Assembly (NCBI GenBank): GCA_038826135.1 | Contig: JAWBON010000027.1 | Coordinates: 1-16,094 of the forward strand | Length of the DNA: 16,094 bases | Direction: 5' to 3' | Origin: Candidatus Odinarchaeota archaeon | GTDB lineage: Archaea > Asgardarchaeota > Odinarchaeia > Odinarchaeales > Odinarchaeaceae | Shown: one piece after another, positions 17 through 13,312 of the stretch | Numbering within the stretch: position 1 is the first letter of the stretch | Layout of the letters: each line of letters starts with the position of its first letter | The notes under the pieces: generated by a model | Databases searched by the model: none | Seen by the model: the letters and a program-made list of their open reading frames with translations, nothing else | Told to the model about the DNA's origin: nothing | Made by a program: the position numbers and the translations under genes

Positions 17-1795
17 TTGGTTAAGAGGCAGCCGATTATCGCGGTTTTAGGTCACATAGATACTGGTAAAACATCCCTGCTAGATAAAATCAGGGGGACA
101 GCGGTTCAACTTAGAGAGGCTGGTGGAATAACCCAGCATGTAGGCGCCAGTTATTTACCGATAGAAACTATAAAAGAACTCTGTGGAAGCCTTCTTGAAA
201 GATTAAACGTCGAATTAACAATACCCGGCTTACTTATAATAGACAGTCCGGGTCACGCGGTGTTCATGAATCTGAGGAAGCGGGCTGGTAGTGTTTGCGA
301 TCTAGCTGTTTTAGTTGTTGATTTAACAGCTGGTTTTCAACCCCAAACATATGAGTCTATAAACATACTTAAAGAGCGTAAAACTCCTTTTGTTCTGGTT
401 GCGAATAAGGTTGATCTAATACCTGGTTGGAAACCTACTTCGGACGCATGCTTCCTAGATAGTTTCAAAAACCAAGATAAACAGGTTATAAAAGACTTGG
501 ACGCCAGAATATACGAGATCATCGGTAATCTTTCAATACTCGGTCTCCAGTCCGAGCGCTTTGATAGAGTGCAAGATTTTACAAGGAATATTGCAATAGT
601 CCCCACAAGCGCTAAAACAGGTGAAGGTATACCCGAGTTATTAATGGTGTTAGCAGGGTTAGCTCAACAGTATTTAGCTAAAAAACTAGAGTTAAAGGAG
701 GAACCGGCTAGAGGAGTTATTTTAGAGGTTAAAGAGGAGCCTGGTTTAGGCATAGCCGCTGATACAATAATATATAATGGTGTGCTTAGAAAAGGCGATA
801 TTATAGTAGTAGGAACTTTAACAGAGCCTTTAGTTACAAAAATTAAAGTTATACTTAAACCTAAACCCTTAGATGAGATACGTGACCCCCGTGAGAAATT
901 TGATTCTGTGGATGAGGTTTGGGCTGCAGCTGGTGTTAAAATAGTAGCAGCGGGGTTCGAGCAAATTATAGCCGGAGCGCCTATTATCGCTGTTTCAACG
1001 GATTCAGATACTCAAAAAGCAGCTGCGGAAATTAAAGATGAAATTAGTAAAATAAGAATAAGCACCGATAAAACAGGGATAGTTCTAAAAGCTGATGCCT
1101 TAGGTTCACTGGAGGCGATTATAGGATATTTCAAGGAGAGAGGATGTCAGATAAGGATAGCTGACGTAGGCGATGTTTCGAAAAGAGATGTCATAGAAGC
1201 TGAAGTTGTCCGAGAGGAGGATCCCTACGCTTCGATTATTCTAGCCTTTAATGTGAAGGTTCTCCCAGATGCTAGGGAGGAGGCTGAACTGAAGAACATC
1301 CCTATCATCAAGAGCAACATCATATACGATTTATTTGATAAATATGATGAATGGGTTAGATTAAAACGCGAGGAAGCTAGGAAAAAAGCGTTTGAAAATA
1401 TAATTTTACCGGGTAAATTCGAGATATTACCCGGTTATGTTTTTAGAACAAGTAAACCCGCGATTGTTGGTGTAAAGGTATTAGCAGGTAAAATATCCAC
1501 TAAAGTCGGATTAATCAATTCCGACGGGGAGAAGATTGGTGAAATACTTCAAATCCAAGACAAGGGGCAAAGCCTTCAAAAAGCGTATGCAGGGCAATCA
1601 GTAGCTATCTCTATAAAAGGACCCACAGTAGGGCGTCAAATAAACGAAGGAGATGTTTTATTCATAGATGTGCCGGAAAGTGATGTGCGAGTTCTAAACA
1701 CAAAGCTTTCAGCCGAACTCACTTCAGATGAAAAAGAGAGTCTTGAAGAGTTTATTAGAATTAAAAGGAAAACTAATAAGTTCTGGGGAATTTAG
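17..1795 (+). CDS. infB: Translation initiation factor aIF5B (IF-2)
   Basis: 592 aa from a TTG start, with a GAAGGTGA Shine-Dalgarno (SD)-like site at 3-10. N-terminal RQPIIAVLGHIDTGKT, EAGGITQHVGA, IDSPGH, NKVD and SAKTGEG GTPase motifs; KADALGSLEAI; C-terminal FRTSKPAIVGV. Confidence 0.97.
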   Translation: MVKRQPIIAVLGHIDTGKTSLLDKIRGTAVQLREAGGITQHVGASYLPIETIKELCGSLLERLNVELTIPGLLIIDSPGHAVFMNLRKRAGSVCDLAVLVVDLTAGFQPQTYESINILKERKTPFVLVANKVDLIPGWKPTSDACFLDSFKNQDKQVIKDLDARIYEIIGNLSILGLQSERFDRVQDFTRNIAIVPTSAKTGEGIPELLMVLAGLAQQYLAKKLELKEEPARGVILEVKEEPGLGIAADTIIYNGVLRKGDIIVVGTLTEPLVTKIKVILKPKPLDEIRDPREKFDSVDEVWAAAGVKIVAAGFEQIIAGAPIIAVSTDSDTQKAAAEIKDEISKIRISTDKTGIVLKADALGSLEAIIGYFKERGCQIRIADVGDVSKRDVIEAEVVREEDPYASIILAFNVKVLPDAREEAELKNIPIIKSNIIYDLFDKYDEWVRLKREEARKKAFENIILPGKFEILPGYVFRTSKPAIVGVKVLAGKISTKVGLINSDGEKIGEILQIQDKGQSLQKAYAGQSVAISIKGPTVGRQINEGDVLFIDVPESDVRVLNTKLSAELTSDEKESLEEFIRIKRKTNKFWGI

Positions 1796-1805
1796 ATGAA
1801 CCCTG

Positions 1806-1844
1806 ATTATACTATTAAAATCTGTTTTCTTCAAATAGTATAAT
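1806..1844. other. Perfect 11-bp inverted repeat (ATTATACTATT / AATAGTATAAT, 17-nt spacer) between infB and rps6e
   Basis: Arms at 1806-1816 and 1834-1844 are exact reverse complements. Function unknown: terminator, processing hairpin or operator. Confidence 0.45.
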
Positions 1845-1913
1845 TTAAATACGGTTCAATAGAATTCTTTCTTGAATTAATTATATTTTAACTTAGTAGC
1901 GGAGGTTTATTCA

Positions 1914-2306
1914 ATGCCCGAGTTTAAACTAGTTATCTCAGATAAAGAGACAGGTAAGACTGTTCAGATACCGGTTAAAGACGCTAAAGCGAATGCTCTA
2001 ATAGGTCGTAAAGTAAACGAGGTTATTTCAGGTGATCTAATAGGATTAGCTGGATACGAGCTTAAAATAACAGGCGGTAGCGATCGTGACGGTTTTCCAA
2101 TAAGAGCTGATGTTCAAGGAACTGCTAGAAAAGCGGTATTTATATCTAGCGGGTCAGGTATTAGAGATAAAGAAGTTAGAAGAAGAAAATATGTTAGAGG
2201 CAACACTATTTCCCCGGATATAGTTCAGATTAACATGGTTATTACTAAAAAAGGTAAACGATCATTAGAGGAGCTTACCGGTTTAAAAGAGGGGGCCTCT
2301 CAATAA
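1914..2306 (+). CDS. rps6e: 30S ribosomal protein S6e (eS6)
   Basis: MPEFKLVISD start, LKITGGSDRDGFP and RRKYVRGN motifs; GGAGGT SD at 1901-1906. Confidence 0.96.
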   Translation: MPEFKLVISDKETGKTVQIPVKDAKANALIGRKVNEVISGDLIGLAGYELKITGGSDRDGFPIRADVQGTARKAVFISSGSGIRDKEVRRRKYVRGNTISPDIVQINMVITKKGKRSLEELTGLKEGASQ

Positions 2307-2328
2307 ATTAAAATGAGGCGCGTCTGTA

Positions 2329-3600
2329 ATGCCTAAAACTGTTGAAAAAAAATATAGTATAGGCCAAGCGGTGGTTAATATAGGTGTGGTAGGGCATGTT
2401 GACCACGGTAAGACTACACTAGTCCATGCTATAACAGGTGAGTGGACTGATAGGCATAGTGAAGAGATAAAAAGAGGTATATCAATTAAACTAGGCTACT
2501 CTGATATTACAATTTTTAAATGCCCGAAATGCTCTGAGCCTGAATCATATACAACAAAGAACCTGTCCCCTGACTTGAAATGTTTGAAATGTGGCGTGGA
2601 GTTAGTGCCTGAAAGAAAAATATCATTTGTAGACGCGCCTGGACACGAGGTTCTCATGGCCACAGTAATCTCCGGCGCCTCTTTAATGGATGGTGCTTTA
2701 CTTATAATAGCGGCTAATGAAAAATGTCCACAACCACAAACTCGTGAACATTTAGCAGTCCTCCAGATCACAGGGATAAAGAATATTATAATAGTTCAAA
2801 ATAAAGCGGAACTGGTTAGTGAAAAAGAGGCTTTAGAAAACTATAAGCAGATTAAACAATTTGTTAAAGGAACAGTCGCTGAAAACGCTCCGATTATTCC
2901 CACATCCGCTATTTTCAAGAAAAACATAGATCTAGTCCTTTACGCTATTCAAAAATATATTCCAACCCCTAAAAGGGATGATAGTAAACCTTTGTTAATG
3001 TATGTTACCAGGTCATTCGATGTTAATAAACCCGGCTGTGAACCTAAAGACCTTCAAGGGGGTGTGTTAGGGGGGTCAATAATTCAGGGTAAGTTGAAAG
3101 TGGGGGATGTGATAGAAGTACGCCCGGGGATAAAAATAGACAAGTCCGGTGTCTCAACATATAATCCGATAACAACAACGGTTACGAGTTTACAGGGTGG
3201 TGGAGTCTACTTAGAAGAAGCAAGGCCTGGTGGACTTATAGGCGTTGGAACAAAACTCGACCCATCGTTAACCAAGGCGGATGGTTTTATAGGTAACATG
3301 GTTGGAAAGAGTGATAGTTTACCGCCTGTACTAGATGAGCTTACGCTCACCGTCAACTTGATGCAGAGAGTTGTAGGAACAAACGAGCTTCTTCAAGTTG
3401 ATAATATCCAGTTGAAGGAGCCTCTTATGGTGAATGTAGGCGCTGCTGTGACAGTGGGGGTTGTAACAAAAGTTTCAAGTAACCAAATTACTTTAAAGCT
3501 TAAAAGACCGGTATGCGGTGAACCTAATCAGAGAGTAGCTATAAGCCGTCAGATAAAAGGGAGATGGAGGCTTATAGGGTGGGGTGAATTAATAGCGTGA
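2329..3600 (+). CDS. eif2g: Translation initiation factor aIF2 subunit gamma
   Basis: NIGVVGHVDHGKTT, DRHSEEIKRGISIKLGY, CPKC/CLKC zinc ribbon, FVDAPGHE, RSFDVNKPG and C-terminal RWRLIGWG. Confidence 0.97.
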   Translation: MPKTVEKKYSIGQAVVNIGVVGHVDHGKTTLVHAITGEWTDRHSEEIKRGISIKLGYSDITIFKCPKCSEPESYTTKNLSPDLKCLKCGVELVPERKISFVDAPGHEVLMATVISGASLMDGALLIIAANEKCPQPQTREHLAVLQITGIKNIIIVQNKAELVSEKEALENYKQIKQFVKGTVAENAPIIPTSAIFKKNIDLVLYAIQKYIPTPKRDDSKPLLMYVTRSFDVNKPGCEPKDLQGGVLGGSIIQGKLKVGDVIEVRPGIKIDKSGVSTYNPITTTVTSLQGGGVYLEEARPGGLIGVGTKLDPSLTKADGFIGNMVGKSDSLPPVLDELTLTVNLMQRVVGTNELLQVDNIQLKEPLMVNVGAAVTVGVVTKVSSNQITLKLKRPVCGEPNQRVAISRQIKGRWRLIGWGELIA

Positions 3601-3602
3601 CA

Positions 3603-3618
3603 CCCTTTCTTCAAAGGG
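3603..3618 (+). terminator. Short hairpin CCCTTT-CTTC-AAAGGG followed by a pyrimidine run, directly after the eif2g stop
   Basis: 6-bp stem with a 4-nt loop, then CTTTCT. The terminator or attenuator role is an inference. Confidence 0.3.
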
Positions 3619-3651
3619 CTTTCTCGTTGAGCGGTTTAATAAGGCGTTCAT

Positions 3652-4053
3652 ATGATTATAAAGATTTTAATAGACACAAATTTTCTCATTCTCCCGTTAA
3701 AAACTGGAAAAAATTTTAAGATACAACTTGATAATTTAATAGGATTCAACTATGAACTGCTGGTTTTAACAGATTCTATAAATGAGCTTGCGTACGTGGA
3801 GCCGAGGCTCTTCGAAAACATTAAGGCGAACAACTCACTTATTGAAACGCTATGGCCTGGAATAAAAATAGTGAACGCCGAGTCAACTCTTATTAACAAT
3901 GTAGATGATAGAATAGTCGAATACGCTGTTAAAAACAATTGCGCTGTAGCTACAAACGACGCATCCTTAAGATCAAGGTTGAGAAAAAACAACGTTACTA
4001 CAATATATTTAAGGCATAAAAGCCATTTAGCAATAGACGGAAACATTGGTTAA
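3652..4053 (+). CDS. PIN-domain ribonuclease (Fcf1/Utp24-like, conserved downstream of aIF2-gamma)
   Basis: ILIDTNFL, NEL, VDD and VATND supply the PIN acidic residues; this is the usual archaeal position after eif2g. Confidence 0.85.
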   Translation: MIIKILIDTNFLILPLKTGKNFKIQLDNLIGFNYELLVLTDSINELAYVEPRLFENIKANNSLIETLWPGIKIVNAESTLINNVDDRIVEYAVKNNCAVATNDASLRSRLRKNNVTTIYLRHKSHLAIDGNIG

Positions 4054-4225
4054 AACAGGTTTTTCTCGAATTAATTAAATGGAATATAAATATTTATAAA
4101 GAAAAAAAATCATTCATTGCCAGCGTTAAAATTATTCCCGTCAAATAAGACTGTAAAATTTATTAAATTAGTAGGGTAGAAGTGACCAAAATATTTAACG
4201 CGTGCAGTAAAGGTATGATTATAAG

Positions 4226-4233
4226 TTTATAAA
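4226..4233 (+). promoter_or_regulatory. TATA box candidate for the rpo7-spt4-DUF359-rps24e-rps27ae unit
   Basis: TTTATAAA about 48 nt upstream of the rpo7 start, in an AT-rich intergenic region. Confidence 0.45.
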
Positions 4234-4280
4234 TGCTCGTTAATAAAAATAGTTCTATAATGTTTAAGAGGCTGGTTTAA

Positions 4281-4865
4281 TTGTATAAGCTATTAACAGT
4301 GAAAGATAATATTCGTATCCCTCCATCCCGTTTTAGAGAAGATATTGAGAAAGTCTCTCTGGAAATCCTAAGAGAAGAGTATGAGGGTGTTATGACCACG
4401 GAATTAGGTTTCATAGTAGCTATTATAAAAGTTTTAGAACTCGGCCCTGGAAAGATTATTCCAGGAGATGGCGCGACATATCATAACGTAATATTCGAAG
4501 CCTTAGCGTTTAAACCAGAACTTCAGCAAATAGTTGAAGGAGAGGTTGTTGAGGTTGTCGACTTCGGGGTTTTTATCAGGCTAGGACCATTAGACGGTTT
4601 ATGTCATGTAAGCCAGGTAACTGACGACTTTATCAGCTACGATCAGAAAAGATCAGCTTTACTGGGCAAAGAGAGCGGTCGCGTAATATCGGTTGGCGAT
4701 CATGTAAGAGCTAGAATCATAGCGGTGAGCTTGAAGGGCGGTTCTAGAAGCGGTAAAATAGGGTTAACCATGAGGCAGCCTTACCTGGGTAAAATTGAAT
4801 GGATTAAAGCTGATATTAAAAAAATTCTAGAGGCGAAGGAGCCTAAAAAATCAAAGGCTAGTTAA
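4281..4865 (+). CDS. rpo7: DNA-directed RNA polymerase subunit Rpo7 (E')
   Basis: TTG start; VRIPP-like NIRIPP, IIPGDGATY, S1 domain FGVFIRLGPLDGLCHVSQV and C-terminal KIGLTMRQPYLGK. Confidence 0.96.
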   Translation: MYKLLTVKDNIRIPPSRFREDIEKVSLEILREEYEGVMTTELGFIVAIIKVLELGPGKIIPGDGATYHNVIFEALAFKPELQQIVEGEVVEVVDFGVFIRLGPLDGLCHVSQVTDDFISYDQKRSALLGKESGRVISVGDHVRARIIAVSLKGGSRSGKIGLTMRQPYLGKIEWIKADIKKILEAKEPKKSKAS

Positions 4866-4876
4866 CGGTGATCTAA

Positions 4877-5062
4877 GTGAAAGATAGGGCTTGTAAAACA
4901 TGTAGAAAAATAATAAAGGGTCAAATATGCCCTACTTGTAAAACATACACTTTATCATATGAGTATGACGGGCTTGTTATAATAAATGACCATCAAAACT
5001 CGCAGATTGCTGAAAAATTAAATATTAATGAGAACGGTAAATATGCGTTGAAGGTAAGATAG
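4877..5062 (+). CDS. spt4: Transcription elongation factor Spt4 (RpoE'')
   Basis: 61 aa from a GTG start; ACKTC..CPTC zinc finger, SQIAEKLNI and GKYALKVR; directly follows rpo7. Confidence 0.94.
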   Translation: MKDRACKTCRKIIKGQICPTCKTYTLSYEYDGLVIINDHQNSQIAEKLNINENGKYALKVR

Positions 5063-5595
5063 TGAAGACACTGAAAATAACACGTAAATTAAGATATTAT
5101 TTAAAGAAACCCCTCGGCCGCCTAATACCATTAGAGCATATGGGTAATATAGAGCTGTTAAAAGAAGTGTTGAAAAAAGAGAAACCTGTAAAACTGATCT
5201 CTGTAGGTGATATAGTAACAGACAGTCTGATCAAGAATAATATTGAACCTGATTTATACATAGTTGATGGGCGAACTTTAAGAGGTGAATTCAACTCTCA
5301 ACCAGCTAGAGCGTGTAGCATAAAAGTGATTAATCCACCTGGAACAATTAATTCTTCAGTGTGGATGGTGATCGGAAGCTGTTTAGAAAAAGAGGACAAA
5401 ATAGGCATATTCGTGGAGGGTGAGGAAGATTTATTAGTACTTCCGTCCGTTATACTAGCGCCATTAGGCGCGGTAGTGATTTACGGTCAGCCTAATAAAG
5501 GTGTAGTTATAGTAAAAGTGGATCAAGAGATTAAAAACAAAGTTCAAAAAATTTTATGTTTAATGGAGGAAGTTGTCAATGGGCAAGGATTTTGA
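5062..5595 (+). CDS. DUF359 family protein, GTP-dependent dephospho-CoA kinase
   Basis: LKKPLG, ISVGDIVT, IVDGRT, NPPGTI, VEGEEDL and YGQPNKG motifs; conserved position after spt4. Confidence 0.9.
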   Translation: MKTLKITRKLRYYLKKPLGRLIPLEHMGNIELLKEVLKKEKPVKLISVGDIVTDSLIKNNIEPDLYIVDGRTLRGEFNSQPARACSIKVINPPGTINSSVWMVIGSCLEKEDKIGIFVEGEEDLLVLPSVILAPLGAVVIYGQPNKGVVIVKVDQEIKNKVQKILCLMEEVVNGQGF

Positions 5596-5911
5596 AGTAA
5601 AAGAAGATGTGAAAAATCCTTTACTCAAACGTAGAGAGTTAACTATTATAATAAATCACGCTGGAACCGGCACCCCTAACAGATTAGAGGTTAGGAAAAA
5701 AGTGTCTTCAAAACTTAATGAAGATTTAGAGAAGGTTTATGTAACAAAAGTAGTGGAACTACCAGACCATAATAGTTGCAAGGTCTTAGCTCACGTCTAC
5801 GATAATAAAGAGACTGCTTTAAAGATTGAACAGCAATATATTATAAAAAGAAACACTGAAAATAAAACTGAAGCGGAAAGCGCTGAGTCTAAATCTGAAT
5901 CTGTCAGCTAA
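5579..5911 (+). CDS. rps24e: 30S ribosomal protein S24e (eS24)
   Basis: [17 protein letters not shown] and AHVYDN motifs. Start moved from TTG 5573 to ATG 5579 because of the GGAGGA SD at 5565-5570; overlaps the DUF359 3' end. Confidence 0.94.
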
Positions 5912-5946
5912 AAGCTGAAGATAAAAACATGGGAGGAGGTATAATC

Positions 5947-6114
5947 TTGACAGTTAAAGATTATTTCAAAGTAGAAGGTGATAAAATAATTCGTTTAAAG
6001 AGAAACTGTCCAAGATGCGGTCCAGGCACGTATATGGCGGAGCACGGTGACAGGTTTTCATGCGGAAAATGCGGTTGGACTGTTTTCAAAAAACAGGATA
6101 AGAGTGAAAAATAA
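5947..6114 (+). CDS. rps27ae: 30S ribosomal protein S27ae (eS31), stand-alone with no ubiquitin fusion
   Basis: [20 protein letters not shown] zinc ribbon. The track start is ATG 5929, but its 'GGG' codons (GGAGGAGGT) look like an SD for TTG 5947. Confidence 0.93.
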
Positions 6115-6137
6115 AACGGGGGGAGGGCTAATAAAAT

Positions 6138-6671
6138 TTGTTTAAAAAAATAAATGATCAGACTCTTCTAGCTCTAGCCCAACTGTTAGAGCTTGATATA
6201 GATACAGGCGTGCTCAGAGTATTCAATCAAAGGGTCGGTATATTCCCACTCACCTCTGTTCTACAATTATTCGAAGAGATTAAAACACAAGTAGGCTCCA
6301 AGAAATTCAACGATATAATTAAAAATGCGGGGATAAAATTCGGAGAGAAACTATTAGATACTATACTTTCATTAGATGAAGAGGATTTAATCGAGTTAAA
6401 CCCGCTTCAAGGACGGGAAGCCATATCTAAAATACTCTCATTCTTCGGTTTCGGTAAAATAGAATATATCACGGAATCTCAAAGTAATGTCGCCGTTCTC
6501 AACTACTATAATTCACCTGCCAGTGAGATAGATAATAATATTTTCTGTATTCTCATAACCGGTATAATAGAGGGCATATTAAGTAAATTATATGATAAAA
6601 AGGTTGAAGTTGAAGAAATAAAGTGTGTTAAGAAGAAGAATGACTTCTGTTCTTTCAAAATATTCATGTAG
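6138..6671 (+). CDS. V4R-domain protein
   Basis: C-terminal FFGFGKIE...NSP...FC.LITGIIEGILS......VEVEEIKC......C.F pattern typical of V4R; TTG start with a GGAGG SD. Confidence 0.75.
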   Translation: MFKKINDQTLLALAQLLELDIDTGVLRVFNQRVGIFPLTSVLQLFEEIKTQVGSKKFNDIIKNAGIKFGEKLLDTILSLDEEDLIELNPLQGREAISKILSFFGFGKIEYITESQSNVAVLNYYNSPASEIDNNIFCILITGIIEGILSKLYDKKVEVEEIKCVKKKNDFCSFKIFM

Positions 6672-6691
6672 GAATTACTTGAATCGAATTA

Positions 6692-7288
6692 TTACGCAGC
6701 CCCTGACGGCCTAGCTACCATTTTACTCTTTCTAACCTCGCATTTACGGAGAGGCACTATTTTTTTAGCTTCATTATATATTTCCGATCCGATCTTACCC
6801 AATACAGTTTCATGAACAAATTGCTCGAAGTTTAATTCACCCGCTTTTCTATAAACAATATCCTTCATGATTCCCCTAATCGCCTGCTCTTGGCTTGTTT
6901 TAGCTCTACTATGGGTGAAAGCGATTGTGGAAACTATAAGCTTATAACCGTCTTTAGTGGTGACGCTGAATCGCCCGTCTATTCTGGTGGTCCCTCTTCT
7001 CACTAGACTTCTTAAATAATCCCTGGTTAAATCATGACCTTTAAATATAGTGTACGCCTTATTCCCTTGAACCTCTGTTATTTGAAGAAATATTTTAACA
7101 TGTATCAGTGATATGTCCCCGGTTATATCGTAAAGTGTTGTCTCTACAACCCTGCCTATAACCGCATCTTTAACATTTGCAGGCGTCTGCCCGATTTCAA
7201 TGTTTCCAAGATACTTTGGCGAGACAACTGTGAAAAACTCCTTCATCACCCATCGATCCTTTGAAGCTGTGCCTTTAGTTTTAGACAT
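6692..7288 (-). CDS. rps3ae: 30S ribosomal protein S3ae (eS1)
   Basis: KDRWVMKE, GRVVETTLYDITGD, DYLRSLVRRGTTRID and IVPLRKCEVRK; GGAGGA SD at 7300-7295. Confidence 0.96.
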   Translation of the reverse strand: MSKTKGTASKDRWVMKEFFTVVSPKYLGNIEIGQTPANVKDAVIGRVVETTLYDITGDISLIHVKIFLQITEVQGNKAYTIFKGHDLTRDYLRSLVRRGTTRIDGRFSVTTKDGYKLIVSTIAFTHSRAKTSQEQAIRGIMKDIVYRKAGELNFEQFVHETVLGKIGSEIYNEAKKIVPLRKCEVRKSKMVARPSGAA

Positions 7289-7357
7289 TTAACATCCTCC
7301 ACAAGCTGATTACTATACTTATGAACTTTATACCAGTTATCTTAATGCTTTAAATAT

Positions 7358-7365
7358 TTTATAAA
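7358..7365 (-). promoter_or_regulatory. TATA box candidate for an internal rps3ae promoter
   Basis: TTTATAAA about 70 nt upstream of the rps3ae start, in the pcc1-rps3ae gap. Confidence 0.35.
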
Positions 7366-7462
7366 CGATTCAACGCTTCAACCTACGAACGCCACTTTTC
7401 TCGTTAAAGTTGAGGAAGCTATTTAATCCGTTTATCAAATACTATTTATAAATATACTTGTT

Positions 7463-7717
7463 TTACTCTCCAGCCGGTTTCACACGCTCCCTTAAATAAA
7501 CTATAAGATCATCTAAAACAGTTACGGCTTGATTAATTTCATGTGTTAATTGAAATATTATTTCCAAGTTATTGTTAGAAAATACTTTAATATTATTACC
7601 ATCCACACTTTTAACAGCGTCTTTTAGACTTTCCTGAAATTGTTTCAAATCCAAGCTTCTAACCTCTTCCTTTAATACTAGTTTTAATTTAACCTCTTTC
7701 AACAATCTGTTCTCCAC
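7463..7717 (-). CDS. pcc1: Probable divergent KEOPS subunit Pcc1
   Basis: 84 aa, the right size. It fills the known archaeal rps15-recJ-pcc1-rps3ae slot, and the C-terminal helix (AVTVLDDLIVYL) resembles Pcc1. Sequence similarity is weak, so the call rests mostly on synteny. Confidence 0.6.
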   Translation of the reverse strand: MENRLLKEVKLKLVLKEEVRSLDLKQFQESLKDAVKSVDGNNIKVFSNNNLEIIFQLTHEINQAVTVLDDLIVYLRERVKPAGE

Positions 7718-9164
7718 CTATCTGCTTATTGATAATCTTATTCAAATAAGATGTAAATGTATCCTCGCTGCCTATAGGTATCTCAGCTCCGGCTGCTATA
7801 TCGTGACCTCCAGCCTCAACTGTCTTCAATCCCATTTCTGTAACAGCAGTTTTTAAAGCATGGTTTAAATTTAATCCTTTTTTAACAAGCTCGTCGGTGC
7901 CTCTAACCGAAACCTTAACCCCATCACCCTCACTCTTATAAGCGAAGCATAAAAGCACTTTGTTTGCAGTTTGCGAGATAATCCTAGAATATATTGAGGC
8001 AATAGTGGCGATCATCCTATCGTCTATAACATCCTCGCCGTGGATTATTTTCAACCATTCGATCTCTCTTATCCTACCGGGCTCTCTCAGCCAGGCTATA
8101 TACTTTGAAATCCTCTGCCTGTACTCGTTGATAACATTCTGCGCTTCTGTAATTGATGTAGACCGGTCTCCTAAACAAAGTGATATCGCTAACCCAGTGT
8201 ATCCTAACCTACCGCAAGCGTTGAGCGTGTACGCGTATTCTCTTATATCTCTAAGAAAAGAACCCTCCTCCTCTTCTGTGATAATATATTTCGTCCCTAT
8301 TAACTGCTCGGCAATTTTAGTGTCAAACCCTAACTGCAACATATAAGTGACTAAAGAACTGTATAATTTTACTTTTTCATCCTGAGTTAAGTCGGATAGG
8401 GTTCTCCAATCAGAGTCTTTTTTTAAAGGGATTTTTAGATTAGTTAAGAACGCTATACACTTATCTTCTTCACCAGTCAAACCCTCTATAAAAGGGTCAC
8501 TAGTATATTTAAGCGCCAGATGTATTGGGCGTGTCTCCGACCCGAAGAGGAGAATGTCCTTGACAACTTTCACAAGCCCTTCTTTAACAGCGTCGTTAAG
8601 TACAATATCGTTATTTACACCTGTAAAAGAGCGTTGCGGCCCCTTATCTTGAACATCACCGACAGCTCCCACTAAAGCAATAGGGGATAAGTCGATGTTT
8701 CTATGATTTAAAGCCTTAGCTAAAATATAGCTTGTACCTGAACCGCTAATCTCACTGGACCCGTTTAAACCATAGTAGTGAGGGTTTAATTCTAGTATTT
8801 TTTCAGAATCCTGATGTTGCACGGTTTCATGATGGTCCACTATGAAAACGATTGCTTTATCTTTCAAAACTCTAGAAATATTATCTATCTGGCCGCTTCC
8901 CATATCCAGAAAAACATAGATTTTATTTTCAGCGTCTTTCTCTAATGATTTAATCTCGTTTAATCCTAGTTTCTTAACTATCCTCGCGCAGAATCTGGCA
9001 TTTTCCCGTGCAAGAGCTTTTACAATTATACTAGCAGCTGATATTCCATCAGCATCTATGTGAGATATTACCGTTATATGCTTGTTTTCGCTGATAAACT
9101 CTCTAAGCCACCCAGCTATTTCATCCGCTTTTTTCAGTAAACTAGAATATCTATTATTAGACAT
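7689..9164 (-). CDS. RecJ/Cdc45-like DHH-DHHA1 nuclease (GAN-type)
   Basis: DHH motifs SHIDADG, FLDMGSG, IVDHH and GAVGD; DHHA1 motifs KVSVRG and AGGHDIAAGA. It lies between rps15 and pcc1, the position of GAN in Thermococcales. Confidence 0.88.
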   Translation of the reverse strand: MSNNRYSSLLKKADEIAGWLREFISENKHITVISHIDADGISAASIIVKALARENARFCARIVKKLGLNEIKSLEKDAENKIYVFLDMGSGQIDNISRVLKDKAIVFIVDHHETVQHQDSEKILELNPHYYGLNGSSEISGSGTSYILAKALNHRNIDLSPIALVGAVGDVQDKGPQRSFTGVNNDIVLNDAVKEGLVKVVKDILLFGSETRPIHLALKYTSDPFIEGLTGEEDKCIAFLTNLKIPLKKDSDWRTLSDLTQDEKVKLYSSLVTYMLQLGFDTKIAEQLIGTKYIITEEEEGSFLRDIREYAYTLNACGRLGYTGLAISLCLGDRSTSITEAQNVINEYRQRISKYIAWLREPGRIREIEWLKIIHGEDVIDDRMIATIASIYSRIISQTANKVLLCFAYKSEGDGVKVSVRGTDELVKKGLNLNHALKTAVTEMGLKTVEAGGHDIAAGAEIPIGSEDTFTSYLNKIINKQIGGEQIVERG

Positions 9165-9198
9165 ACCGCTTTTAAACCATTAAAATTATTTAAAGGCG

Positions 9199-9654
9199 TT
9201 AGCGAATAACCATCGCTTTATCCATAGACGTATACTTCCAGTTAGCTGGAAGCATATTCTTACTCTTATAGTATTCTGTTAACCTGCGTATTTTACTTTC
9301 AATTAATTGTAATCCTCGTTTAGAGTGAAAGTCTTTAGGATGCTCTTCTAAATGTGTTTTTAAGCCTTGAGCTTTTCTAATCAAGTTAGATAAGTCTTCA
9401 GGAAACTGCGGTGCTAAACCCTTCTCCCTCAGTATTTGTGTAATCTTCTTATTAGCTATATTCTTGGTTAATGGAATACCGTGCTGGTCTCTTAAAATTA
9501 AACCGATTTTAGAGGCGGTTTCACCGCTTCTGGCGTATTTAACTATAAGCGCCTCAACCTCCTCAGATGTTCTAGTACACCATTCCGGTGCTTTTTTAAG
9601 AGGCGGTCTTACTGATTTAGATTTACCACGCCTTTTAGAATGCATTCTCGCCAT
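9199..9654 (-). CDS. rps15: 30S ribosomal protein S15 (uS15/S13e)
   Basis: [50 protein letters not shown] and LPANWKY. Confidence 0.97.
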
Positions 9655-10262: not shown

Positions 10263-10895
10263 TTACCCTCTATCAGAGATGTAGCGTCCCCTTTTCTCTA
10301 TTATAATTATTCTTCTTATAACATCTTCAGCTTCACTCCCAGCGGTCTCCTTGTACCCTTCTAATATATCTCTGAAACTTTTCGAAGCTACCCTGAAATG
10401 CGTGCTCTCTAAAGCTCTCTTCATTAAATGCAAATCAACGCCTTTGCTTTCAACATCTGTTGAATGCTCGCATAATCCGAAATCAATGAAGTAAATATTG
10501 CCGTTACTCGTCAAAAGAATATTTGAAGTAGTTAAATCACCGTGAATTAAACCATTCCTGTGCAGTAAGCCGATCATATTTCCTATGCGCTTATTTAACA
10601 CGCGTCTTTCAACCTCATTCAGCTTCTCTAATATATTTTTCACTTTAACCCCTTCAATATACTCGTATATGATACGCGTGTTCTTCAAATCCACATCGTA
10701 CACAATCGGTGTGGGAACCCCCACCGCTCTAGCCTCATTCATCATCCTAGCTTCGAGTATAGTCCTATATGTTCTAAGCTTAGAGTCTAGGGTGGGGTGA
10801 CGGTAATTTTTTTTAACCCTCTCTTTTATAATAACATCAAAACCATACCATTTACTTTTATAAAGACAAGCTTCAGCTCCTTTAGCTATCAGCAT
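10263..10895 (-). CDS. bud32: KEOPS kinase/ATPase Bud32 (PRPK)
   Basis: KGAEA, IIKERVKKNYRHP.LD, LIHGDLTTSN, IDFGL and GVDLHL. Confidence 0.96.
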   Translation of the reverse strand: MLIAKGAEACLYKSKWYGFDVIIKERVKKNYRHPTLDSKLRTYRTILEARMMNEARAVGVPTPIVYDVDLKNTRIIYEYIEGVKVKNILEKLNEVERRVLNKRIGNMIGLLHRNGLIHGDLTTSNILLTSNGNIYFIDFGLCEHSTDVESKGVDLHLMKRALESTHFRVASKSFRDILEGYKETAGSEAEDVIRRIIIIEKRGRYISDRG

Positions 10896-10901
10896 CTAAA
10901 T

Positions 10902-11905
10902 CTATCTCCAAGGTATGTCTATTTCGTCAAGTCTCCATTTAGGGCGAATATGGCTCTCAGAGATCGGTGTGGTTTTACCGGACTTCATGTAAAGCATACC
11001 CGTCCAAGCGATCATTAAACCGTTATCACCCGAATACTCTCTAGGAACCACTTGGAAATTAGCATCATGCTCCTCAGATATTATTTTAATCATCTGTTGA
11101 AGTCTTTTATTAGCCGCCACACCCCCTGTTAACAGAACATCCTTTTTCTCCGTGTGAGCTAAAGCTCTCTCCGTAACCTCAGCTAGCATTGCGAAAGCTG
11201 TTTCCTGGATACTGTAACATAAATCCTCTATTTTATATTTTTTAACCATACTTGATATCGCTGTAAGAAGCCCTGAGTAAGATAGATCCATTCCCTTAAC
11301 TATGTAAGGTAAATCTATCAGCACCCTGCCTTTTTCAGCGTAAGCTTCTATCTTAGGCCCACCAGGGTGTTTAAAACCCATTAACCTGGAGAAACTGTCT
11401 AGAAGATTTCCTATGGCAAGATCCAAGGTTTCGCCGAAAACCCTGTATCTACCAGAATCGAAAGCTGCGACAATTGTATTACCGCCTGAAACATATAATG
11501 TCAGCGGGTCTTCTGTATTCGTAGACCTCCTCCCTATCTCTATATGAGCTATACAGTGATTTACACCTATAAGAGGTATCTTCAACATCATTGATAACGT
11601 CCTAGCTATTATAGCCCCCGCCCTCAGACAAGGCCCTTTAAGCGCTTAAATTAGATTTAAGCTAAACCCGGGCCTTGAGAGAATGCTACAAAATCGAAAT
11701 CTGAAAGATCTAGTTTACCGCTTTTAAGAGCCTCCCTTATAGCTTTATCAGCATTTTCAAGATGATGCTGCACCGCCTCTCTTGGATGTATCCCACCGGT
11801 TACTGGAATATAGGTTTTCTGAATGTTCACTGTTCTCTTAAAATCTTCATCAGTGACCCCTACACCGAACGTGTGAGCGGTAGCTTCAATACCTAATCCG
11901 AGCAT
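10902..11905 (-). CDS. kae1: tRNA t6A37 threonylcarbamoyltransferase Kae1, predicted spliced: exon 1 11905-11664, exon 2 11637-10902, 325 aa
   Basis: Exon 1: MLGLGIEATAHTFG, GGIHPREA..HH, AFSQGPG. Exon 2: GPCLR, GVNHCIAHIE, LYVSGGNT, GETLD.A.GN.LD, GGVAAN, DNGLMIA. 242 + 736 = 978 nt = 326 codons. ATG 11905 is preceded by a GGAGTG SD-like site; ATG 11920 is an alternative start. Confidence 0.93.
11638..11663 (-). other. 26-nt bulge-helix-bulge (tRNA-type) intron in kae1
   Basis: mRNA sense: CAAGGCCC-GGGU-UU|A-GCUUAAAU-CUA-AUUUAAGC-GCUU-AA|A-GGGCCUUG. This gives an 8-bp exon helix, a 4-bp central helix, two 3-nt bulges and an 8-bp intron helix. Cutting after the 2nd nt of each bulge restores GGU-UUA-GGG (G-L-G). 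Confidence 0.9.
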
Positions 11906-11944
11906 TAAATCACACTCCATCTCATAAAACCATCTGCTTAACAC

Positions 11945-12101
11945 TAAGAGGTTGCGATAATATTTAAGGTTGGATTAACAATTTAATTTTTGGGATGATT
12001 ACTAGTTTAAAGATAATATTATATAGGTTTAAAATAAAATATTTGAATAATAATTCACTGAATTGTAATAAAAGACTATTTAAAAATAAGCAGGGAAGAT
12101 T
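11945..12101. promoter_or_regulatory. AT-rich divergent promoter region between the kae1 operon and the GTPase pair
   Basis: Divergent gene starts flank it, and TATA-like elements occur on both strands (TTAAATA minus strand near 11960-11967; TTATATAG plus strand near 12019-12026). Confidence 0.45.
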
Positions 12102-12617
12102 ATGGCTGCATATAAGTTTAAAATAGCGTTAGTCGGGGACGGCGCTGTTGGGAAAACCTCTCTGATCATAAAATTTGTTGAAAACATGTTTAAACACGAA
12201 TATAAGTCAACGATCGGTGTAGACATTTTCACCAAGTCTGTTACAATAGATAAGAATGATGTGTTAATGACTCTCTGGGATATAGCCGGTCAAGAAAGAT
12301 TTAAAGTAATCAGGAAAGGTTTTTTCGACGGTGCTGCTGGAGCTATAATAGTCTACGATATTACTAGAAAGGAAACATTTGAAAATGTAGATGCCTGGTT
12401 GAAAGAAGTTGAAGAGTTCACAGGGCCAGTACCTATGATTATATGCGGTAATAAAATAGATCTAGCTGATAAACGTCAAGTTTCAACCAAGCAGGGAAGC
12501 AGCTACGCTAATAAGCTTAAGAAAACATTTATAGAGACTAGTGCTAAGACTGGTGAAAACGTTGAAAACGCTTTCGTCGAACTGTGTAGTGAAATACTGT
12601 CTGCACGGAAAAAATAA
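12102..12617 (+). CDS. Rab-like small GTPase A (Ras superfamily, eukaryotic-signature protein)
   Basis: G1 GDGAVGKT, G2 YKSTIGVD, G3 WDIAGQERF, G4 GNKID, G5 ETSAK; Rab-type IVYDIT; no C-terminal cysteine motif. Confidence 0.93.
   Translation: MAAYKFKIALVGDGAVGKTSLIIKFVENMFKHEYKSTIGVDIFTKSVTIDKNDVLMTLWDIAGQERFKVIRKGFFDGAAGAIIVYDITRKETFENVDAWLKEVEEFTGPVPMIICGNKIDLADKRQVSTKQGSSYANKLKKTFIETSAKTGENVENAFVELCSEILSARKK
12535..12574 (+). repeat. 40-nt direct repeat, copy 1 (G5 region of GTPase A)
   Basis: AGACTAGTGCTAAGACTGGTGAAAACGTTGAAAACGCTTT; 39/40 identical to 13092-13131. Confidence 0.9.
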
Positions 12618-12634
12618 GTCTGCTGGTGAGATTG

Positions 12635-13312
12635 ATGTCATCTGCGACTGGTGTTGAAACACATTTCGTGTTCAAAGTACTCTTACTAGGCGATGGCGCT
12701 GTCGGCAAAACATCGCTTATCTCCATGTTCACAAAAGGCTTCATAAAACAGGACTATAAAATGACGATCGGCGTCGATATAATGGCTAAAACCGTGAGAG
12801 TTGACGATAAGATAGCTAAACTCTCAATATGGGATTTAGCTGGGCAGCAACGGTTTAAAGCTATAAGAAGTGCTTTTTACGGCGGTGTAGCTGGAGCGCT
12901 GCTTGTATTCGATTTAACTAGGGCTTTAACGTTTAAGAATTTAATAAACTGGCTTCAAGAACTCTACCAGTACGGCAACCCTGAATGCCCGACCATCCTC
13001 ATAGGTAATAAATCCGATTTAGCCGAGCTGAGAGATGTTCGACAAGAAGACATAGACTGGTTTGTATCCGAGATCGGTAGCGAATACATACAGACTAGTG
13101 CTAAGACTGGTGACAACGTTGAAAACGCTTTTATAAGTTTAACTAGGAAAATGATTGAGAAATCAATGGGTAAAAAAATAAAAGTTGTTAAAAGTCAGGA
13201 TGAAGGTAAATATTACACATCTGTTGAAACCAACAACAAGGAGTCAACCTCTAAAACTGAACAGCCGAGTTCAAATCAAAAAAATATTTTAAACCAAGGC
13301 TCCAATCCGTAA
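12635..13312 (+). CDS. Rab-like small GTPase B with a ~50-aa polar C-terminal tail
   Basis: G1 GDGAVGKT, G2 YKMTIGVD, G3 WDLAGQQRF, G4 GNKSD, G5 QTSAK; LVFDLT. ATG 12635 is preferred over GTG 12626 because of the GGTGAG SD at 12625-12630. Confidence 0.92.
   Translation: MSSATGVETHFVFKVLLLGDGAVGKTSLISMFTKGFIKQDYKMTIGVDIMAKTVRVDDKIAKLSIWDLAGQQRFKAIRSAFYGGVAGALLVFDLTRALTFKNLINWLQELYQYGNPECPTILIGNKSDLAELRDVRQEDIDWFVSEIGSEYIQTSAKTGDNVENAFISLTRKMIEKSMGKKIKVVKSQDEGKYYTSVETNNKESTSKTEQPSSNQKNILNQGSNP
13092..13131 (+). repeat. 40-nt direct repeat, copy 2 (G5 region of GTPase B)
   Basis: AGACTAGTGCTAAGACTGGTGACAACGTTGAAAACGCTTT; single mismatch (C13114 vs A12557). Confidence 0.9.

Follow-up and report, generated by a model that had tools for sequence, protein, structure and literature searches.

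The interrupted kae1 gene

The stretch of DNA examined here (the window, which is the whole of contig JAWBON010000027.1 in assembly GCA_038826135.1, 16,094 nucleotides (nt) long) comes from a Candidatus Odinarchaeota archaeon, and on its minus strand lies kae1, a gene for the synthesis of the tRNA modification N6-threonylcarbamoyladenosine (t6A), which is split by a 26-nt insert (11663-11638) that changes the reading frame and adds a stop codon. Kae1 is consequently read as two open reading frames (ORFs), the first (11944/11905-11657) ending in AFSQGPGLA-stop and the second listed as 11591-10902; the downstream frame is, moreover, already open right after the insert, where GPCLRAGAIIAR comes ahead of the listed ORF's first Met. 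Without splicing, the reading stops at a UAA (11659-11657), two codons into the insert. The TsaD profile (Pfam) is matched from 6 to 62 on the upstream ORF (E 2e-13) and from 64 to 264 on the downstream frame (E 1.3e-62), and therefore no profile positions are lost at the break.

Excision of 11663-11638 gives FSQGPGLGPCLRAG, with the QGPGLGPC motif, in a Kae1 of 325 amino acids (aa) counted from the ATG at 11905, and the joined frame reads ...AFSQGPGLGPCLRAG... (also given as ...DFVAFSQGPGLGPCLRAGAII...). Excision of 11662-11637 yields the identical product, because 11663 and 11637 are both A. As a 20-mer, the predicted spliced junction is GGCCCGGGTTTAGGGCCTTG, whose core joins GGGUUU to AGGGCC.

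Around the insert, the transcript can be read as the motif known as bulge-helix-bulge (BHB) in its strict form (hBHBh'), where flanking helices are present on both sides: an outer helix of 8 Watson-Crick pairs formed between the exons, a central helix whose four pairs are G-U, G-U, G-C and U-G, two bulges of 3 nt, and an inner hairpin of 8 base pairs (bp) within the insert. Applied to 71 nt, RNAfold predicts both 8-bp helices, with a minimum free energy (MFE) of -26.8 kcal/mol and z = -3.8, and none of 200 shuffled sequences folds as well as the real one. The helices, bulges and coordinates that a first-pass annotation of the sequence had described are read on the minus strand exactly as it gave them, and its excision of exactly 26 nt, leading to QGPGLGPC and a 325-aa Kae1, is reproduced when the frames are joined.

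The insert occurs once in the genome, even allowing 4 mismatches, and no frame-restoring flanking duplication or target-site duplication was found at the locus; these two observations rule out a repeated mobile insertion, such as a fragment of a miniature inverted-repeat transposable element or of an insertion sequence. A search of the window against Rfam matched no family, and there is no homing-endonuclease gene among those flanking the insert. The host is a member of the Odinarchaeia (Asgard) from a hot spring, known from a metagenome-assembled genome (MAG) of 1.26 Mb in 105 contigs, 93% complete, in which the window is contig C27. Its nearest public records are MAGs of Odinarchaeia, with 88% and 85% amino-acid identity over kae1 exon 2, in agreement with the "probable Asgard archaeon" proposed at first from the sequence. 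The gene is present in a single copy, both exons being intact and conserved, and a second, intact kae1 is thus absent from this genome.

Occurrence and covariation in Asgard genomes

The TsaD profile was searched in 41 relatives and then in 400 Asgard genomes, a split being scored at profile position 63/64. Among these 400 genomes, kae1 is split only in four families (f1, f2, f7 and f19), and there in every member with a match: in the seven sampled Odinarchaeia (four species of the window's genus, f1, and three genomes of the sister family f2), in 5/5 genomes of f7 and in 5/5 of f19, the latter being probably the Freyarchaeia, for which introns have been reported in 92-95% of tRNA genes (PMC11291895). 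It is uninterrupted in about 370 other Asgard genomes. Two further splits were discarded as introns: a second one in G141 (L130, C185, 1992-2031), which consists of a stretch of N whose flanks are duplicated, and another in G014 (L043, C121, about 1380-1404), which is a 1-nt frameshift.

Fifteen inserts were extracted from the four families, from genomes that are related to one another. All of them interrupt the Leu codon of GPGLGP behind its second base (phase 2), and their lengths are 26, 30, 28 and 32 nt in f1, 25 nt in f2, 13-14 nt in f7 and 28-29 nt in f19; in one species of the window's genus the insert, of 30 nt, is in frame and contains two TAA codons. If each predicted bulge is cut in silico behind its second nucleotide, GPGLGPC is restored in 15/15.

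In a tree of 59 Kae1 sequences (quick IQ-TREE), the intron-bearing genes form the groups f1+f2 and f7+f19, with supports of 87 and 90 in the Shimodaira-Hasegawa-like approximate likelihood ratio test (SH-aLRT), and both clades branch from an unresolved node, in such a way that the tree requires two changes of state. The intron may nevertheless have had a single origin. Because the genes that bear it cluster in this manner, it is at least as old as each of the two family pairs; and it is in any case old, being fixed in all of the Odinarchaeia that were sampled as well as in two further Asgard families.

The interiors of the introns share no sequence between families, and their architecture is constant. 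The outer helix follows the consensus CARGGNCC/GGNCCYUG; the central helix takes the forms GGGU/GCUU, CGGC/GCUG, CGGU/GCUG, GGGG/CUCC, GGGG/CCCC and GGGG/CCCU, with its four pairs formed in 14 of the 15 genomes; the 5' bulge reads YUR, and the 3' one AAA, AGA, UAA or UGA. For f2 and f19, folding without constraints gives as the MFE structure precisely the textbook hBHBh', that is, helix, 3-nt bulge, 4-bp helix, 3-nt bulge and helix. The inner hairpin differs in sequence from one family to another and is retained in f1, f2 and f19; in f7 the inner helix has at most 2 bp, which corresponds to a relaxed form.

The alignment of the 15 inserts (A1) contains 180 cells of outer and central pairs, and standard pairs occupy 98.3% of them, compared with 86.1% after shuffling; covariation scores 0.411, a value that 0/500 shuffles attained, compared with 0.175 in the shuffles, as a descriptive count. 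If the 3' partner is shifted by one column, pairing falls to 57-64%. The outer pairs that vary are at the wobble positions of the flanking Gly, Gln and Pro codons, in other words at synonymous sites: pair 3:53 lies between the third bases of a Gln and a Pro codon, and pair 6:50, between the third bases of two Gly codons, is seen as GC, UA, AU, CG and UG. Central pair 9:44 alternates between G-U/G-C and C-G. As a control, in 26 distinct intronless kae1 genes coding for QGPGLGP, the two wobble positions pair in 31% and all eight outer positions in only 2/26, whereas in the intron-bearing genes each of the two wobble pairs holds in 14/15 and the eight outer pairs in 13/15. The covariation belongs, therefore, to the intron-bearing alleles, and it is only in genes with the insert that selection keeps the exon-exon helix. 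This maintenance of the helix is the strongest single argument for a functional RNA structure, and the compensatory changes at the same codon are those that the first-pass annotation had proposed to look for in related genomes.

Splicing machinery and interpretation

The genome encodes the enzymes that such an intron would need. Two paralogues of the tRNA splicing endonuclease EndA were found, a point that had been left as a check. The first, which spans the overlapping ends of two contigs, has its best match in the catalytic alpha subunit of EndA from Aeropyrum pernix (3P1Z_B, E 5.6e-29), and, as read from their alignment, it has the Tyr, His and Lys of the catalytic site. The gene is located at C48:1-420 (-) and C72:1-271 (+), and the contig ends share approximately 125 identical bases; the interruption is an assembly break, the gene itself being unbroken. 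The second paralogue (C45, 185 aa) is closest to the EndA of M. jannaschii (E 1.4e-26), against which its catalytic His is replaced by Ala and Tyr and Lys are kept; it is probably inactive, and the enzyme is probably an (alpha-beta)2 heteromer of both. EndA of the (alpha-beta)2 type cuts non-canonical introns (PMC5829648) and has been linked to the splicing of cbf5 pre-mRNA (PMC2738675). The ligase RtcB is also encoded, its gene holding a long insertion, in frame, which is probably an intein. It occupies C16:2586-5357 (+) as one open frame of 995 aa, with Pfam matches 1-50 and 49-426 separated by about 1.4 kb.

With this background, it is very likely that the 26 nt are an ancient archaeal BHB intron, of the EndA/RtcB type, in the kae1 pre-mRNA, and the relatives, when compared, point strongly to its excision from the mRNA by the enzymes of tRNA splicing. 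The mRNA splicing that the first-pass annotation had inferred is thus backed by covariation, distribution and machinery. In the process envisaged, the transcript can form a fold in which the edges of the exons pair over 8 bp and GGGU pairs with GCUU over 4 bp, leaving opposed 3-nt bulges and an 8-bp hairpin; the EndA heteromer would cut between the second and third nucleotides of each bulge, the rule assumed from the outset and stated for the cbf5 introns in PMC2738675; and RtcB would ligate the exon ends, to give CCG GGU UUA GGG CCU and a Kae1 of 325 aa, and may also circularise the intron. Ribosomes that entered unspliced mRNA would halt two codons past the start of the intron, at the UAA, and Kae1, hence t6A, would therefore depend on the tRNA-splicing machinery.

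Several points weigh against this interpretation: (i) the support for splicing is comparative, the contig from X6 (labelled metatranscriptomic, although of whole-genome shotgun strategy) covering only 11798-11949, to one side of the junction, and RNA-seq run X12 giving no contig over the stretch; (ii) in the MFE fold the G-U-rich central helix is unpaired and appears as a 7x7 internal loop, and with three of its four pairs G-U this helix would be weak for a hot-spring organism unless stabilised by the enzyme, so that the term "canonical", used in the first-pass annotation, is slightly generous for the genus; (iii) the 15 genomes are related, and the shuffle statistics overstate their independence, the counts being descriptive and not probabilities; (iv) a scan of the genome for BHB motifs that join ORFs gave 1235 hits with the real topology and 1257 with its mirror, and then 64 and 74 loci, with no excess, and the BHB fold by itself is not rare enough for proof; (v) the heteromeric state of EndA is deduced from sequence. 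The scan is dominated by joins between neighbouring genes; only kae1 stood out (8 + 8 bp), and the scan missed gatA, gcvPA and citG, described below, whose outer helices are imperfect, as well as cases with short first exons.

Among the other explanations, the one that survives best, although it is very improbable, accepts the BHB and its cleavage by EndA and dispenses with the ligation, so that the kae1-bud32 mRNA would be destroyed or regulated, or Kae1 would be made in two pieces. EndA does cut BHB motifs in the processing of rRNA and in a 5' untranslated region of Haloferax (PMC7714728). Nevertheless, such cleavage would have no reason to restore the frame and the invariant motif in 15/15 cases with lengths as diverse as 13, 14, 25, 26, 28, 29, 30 and 32 nt; the first start available to the downstream piece is a Met 15 residues past the break, with the loss of conserved residues; and RtcB is present.

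Somewhat less probable again is that a small palindromic insertion inactivated the gene, which would now be decaying as a pseudogene. The change of frame and the stop are what would be seen in this case, and annotation pipelines would call two fragments, but kae1 is single-copy and, to our knowledge, t6A synthesis is universally conserved; both halves are open and match the TsaD profile from end to end, the insert has no second copy in the genome and no target-site duplication, and inserts at the same codon persist, with covarying helices, in 15 genomes of four families. The same small probability is given to translational bypassing or recoding, in which the ribosomes would hop over the 26 nt as in gene 60 of phage T4, the RNA remaining uncut, an idea suggested by the stop soon after the break and the hairpin in the gap, both of them similar to gene 60. 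Hopping of that type requires matched take-off and landing codons, and here the take-off codon, UUA, does not match AAA, the landing codon that would be required before GGG CCU; furthermore, bypassing leaves unexplained both the synonymous covariation of the exon-exon helix and the 4-bp helix with two 3-nt bulges in unrelated inserts of 13-32 nt. Finally, an artefact of assembly or sequencing is scarcely credible, for although the genome is a MAG of 105 contigs and the other splits in relatives (G141, G014) proved to be artefacts, an independently assembled Logan contig of 4,484 nt from public run X1, possibly the source sample, spans the site with 0 differences and carries the 26 nt unchanged, and homologous inserts are found in the closed, single-contig genomes G002 and G040 and in MAGs of other studies.

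A close parallel to the kae1 intron is the one in the cbf5 pre-mRNA of certain Crenarchaeota, namely Desulfurococcales and Sulfolobales (Watanabe 2002, Yoshinari 2006 and Yokobori 2009 = PMC2738675). Both are short BHB-type introns within a protein gene for an RNA-modification enzyme, with predicted cuts between the second and third bulge nucleotides; the hosts of the cbf5 intron have a hetero-oligomeric EndA, as deduced for the host of kae1; and both distributions are patchy yet clade-wise, which points to old gain and loss. They differ in the gene and in the phylum (Thermoproteota as opposed to Asgard), in that cbf5 splicing was demonstrated by cDNA and in vitro cleavage and that of kae1 is inferred, and in that the cbf5 introns are unconventional or relaxed BHBs, whereas that of kae1 is complete as an hBHBh' in f2 and f19, and almost complete in the window's genome. 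With the BHB introns of archaeal tRNAs and rRNAs it shares the 3-nt bulge, 4-bp helix, 3-nt bulge and flanking helices, the predicted use of EndA and RtcB and a similar range of sizes, and the tRNA genes of the host lineage are themselves heavily interrupted (PMC11291895, for Freyarchaeia); here, however, the substrate is an mRNA and the exonic halves of the helix are coding, and therefore the structure is kept through synonymous sites. The splicing of HAC1/XBP1 by IRE1 and RtcB (general background and PMC13149111) is another case in which a short intron (26 nt in XBP1) is taken out of an mRNA independently of the spliceosome, by a structure-recognising endonuclease followed by joining of the tRNA-ligase type, with a change of frame; but the IRE1 kinase/RNase and its twin stem-loop signal are unrelated to the nuclease and signal of kae1, and it is a regulated stress response, when the splicing of kae1 would, to present knowledge, be required constitutively.

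A search of open-access papers and bioRxiv found no description of an intron in kae1, consistent with the first-pass annotation's not knowing of one, and where pre-mRNA splicing is concerned, a structural study of archaeal endonucleases published in 2025 refers to the work on cbf5 alone. In the open-access and bioRxiv literature searched, cbf5 of some Crenarchaeota is the only archaeal protein gene for which an endonuclease-spliced intron is reported, and kae1 would be a second. If true, the case, fixed in Asgard lineages of class level and kept up by covariation at synonymous sites, would show that the splicing of mRNAs with the enzymes for tRNAs goes beyond a single exception, and an essential tRNA-modification enzyme would have been made dependent on the enzymes of tRNA splicing. 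The intron would also offer a clean system for the competition between splicing and translation in a cell free of a nucleus. At a practical level, split genes annotated as two fragments or as pseudogenes distort the inferences on completeness and metabolism of Asgard genomes.

Further inserts and neighbouring genes

The genome carries several further inserts of the kae1 kind, in at least four genes (Table 1). In gatA, gcvPA and citG, excision restores a conserved motif, and in the adenosine-kinase-family gene it gives an open frame with no stop. No insert was found in cbf5 (C2:27118-27456, minus strand), which is a single, uninterrupted frame of 331 aa. That these inserts form a set of obligatory mRNA introns spliced by EndA/RtcB, in at least five genes of a 1.26-Mb genome, with that of kae1 predating the split between Odinarchaeia and the Freyarchaeia-like families, is a proposal for which the chances of being right or wrong are evenly balanced. 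If it were true, some Asgard archaea would rely as a matter of routine on split coding sequences for the expression of essential genes, and in these closest prokaryotic relatives of the eukaryotes that expression would be tied to the capacity for tRNA splicing.

Table 1. Features of the kae1 locus and of the genes with similar inserts. Positions are those of the window unless another contig of the genome is named.
Feature	Position	Strand	Remarks
kae1 exon 1	11664..11905	-	Ends with UU of the GPGLGP Leu codon; TsaD 6-62
Alternative kae1 start	11944	-	Upstream GTG
kae1 N-terminus	exon 1	-	MLGLGIEATAHTFG; Kae1-like
kae1 intron (predicted)	11638..11663	-	26 nt, phase 2; in-frame UAA 11659-11657
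kae1 exon 2	10902..11637	-	From the A completing the Leu codon to stop 10904-10902; TsaD 64-264
Outer (exon-exon) helix, 5' strand	11670..11677	-	CAAGGCCC; 8/8 Watson-Crick pairs
Outer helix, 3' strand	11629..11636	-	GGGCCUUG
Central helix, 5' strand	11666..11669	-	Exonic GGGU; pairs with GCUU
Central helix, 3' strand	11640..11643	-	Intronic GCUU
5' bulge	11663..11665	-	UUA; predicted cut between 11664 and 11663
3' bulge	11637..11639	-	AAA; predicted cut between 11638 and 11637
Inner intron hairpin	11644..11662	-	GCUUAAAU/AUUUAAGC; 8 bp, CUA loop
bud32 (KEOPS kinase)	10263..10895	-	RIO1/Pkinase family matches; 6 nt past the kae1 stop
gatA	C35:9457-9485	+	29 nt; Amidase profile split 153/155; excision restores GSDTGGSVRQP
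gcvPA	C60 near 2486	-	30 nt in frame with TAG; CCCC/GGGG central helix; excision gives YTPYQ
citG	C79 near 1190-1218	+	25 nt; excision gives LLEVSGWPKPGNIHRQA
Adenosine-kinase-family gene	C3:13666-14178	-	27 nt; GGGG/CCCC central helix; 8-bp inner stem
UPF0147	C5:10042-10311	-	Candidate from in-frame TAA alone; TAA within profile match

With regard to the tRNAs of the host, ARAGORN found only 31 tRNA genes in the whole genome and called introns in 23 of them, several of the models being implausible ("tRNA-Stop"), a picture that fits heavily interrupted, multi-intron tRNA genes. Five of the 23 intron calls fit the real BHB topology and none its mirror, which is weak evidence from calls that are unreliable ("tRNA-Stop" and multi-intron models).

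As for the neighbourhood, kae1 and bud32 form a probable operon. The region 17-9654 of the window is rich in translation genes (aIF5B, S6e, aIF2-gamma, Rpo7, S24e, S3Ae and S15), together with those of a DHH phosphoesterase and the Ham1 ITPase, and each of these named genes, aIF2-gamma included, is one unbroken ORF with the expected Pfam match. Divergent from kae1 are two tandem genes of Ras/Rab-like small GTPases, 12102-12617 (+) and 12626-13312 (+), a pair typical of the "eukaryotic signature" content of Asgard genomes, the second of which bears a Ser/Thr-rich tail of about 50 aa.
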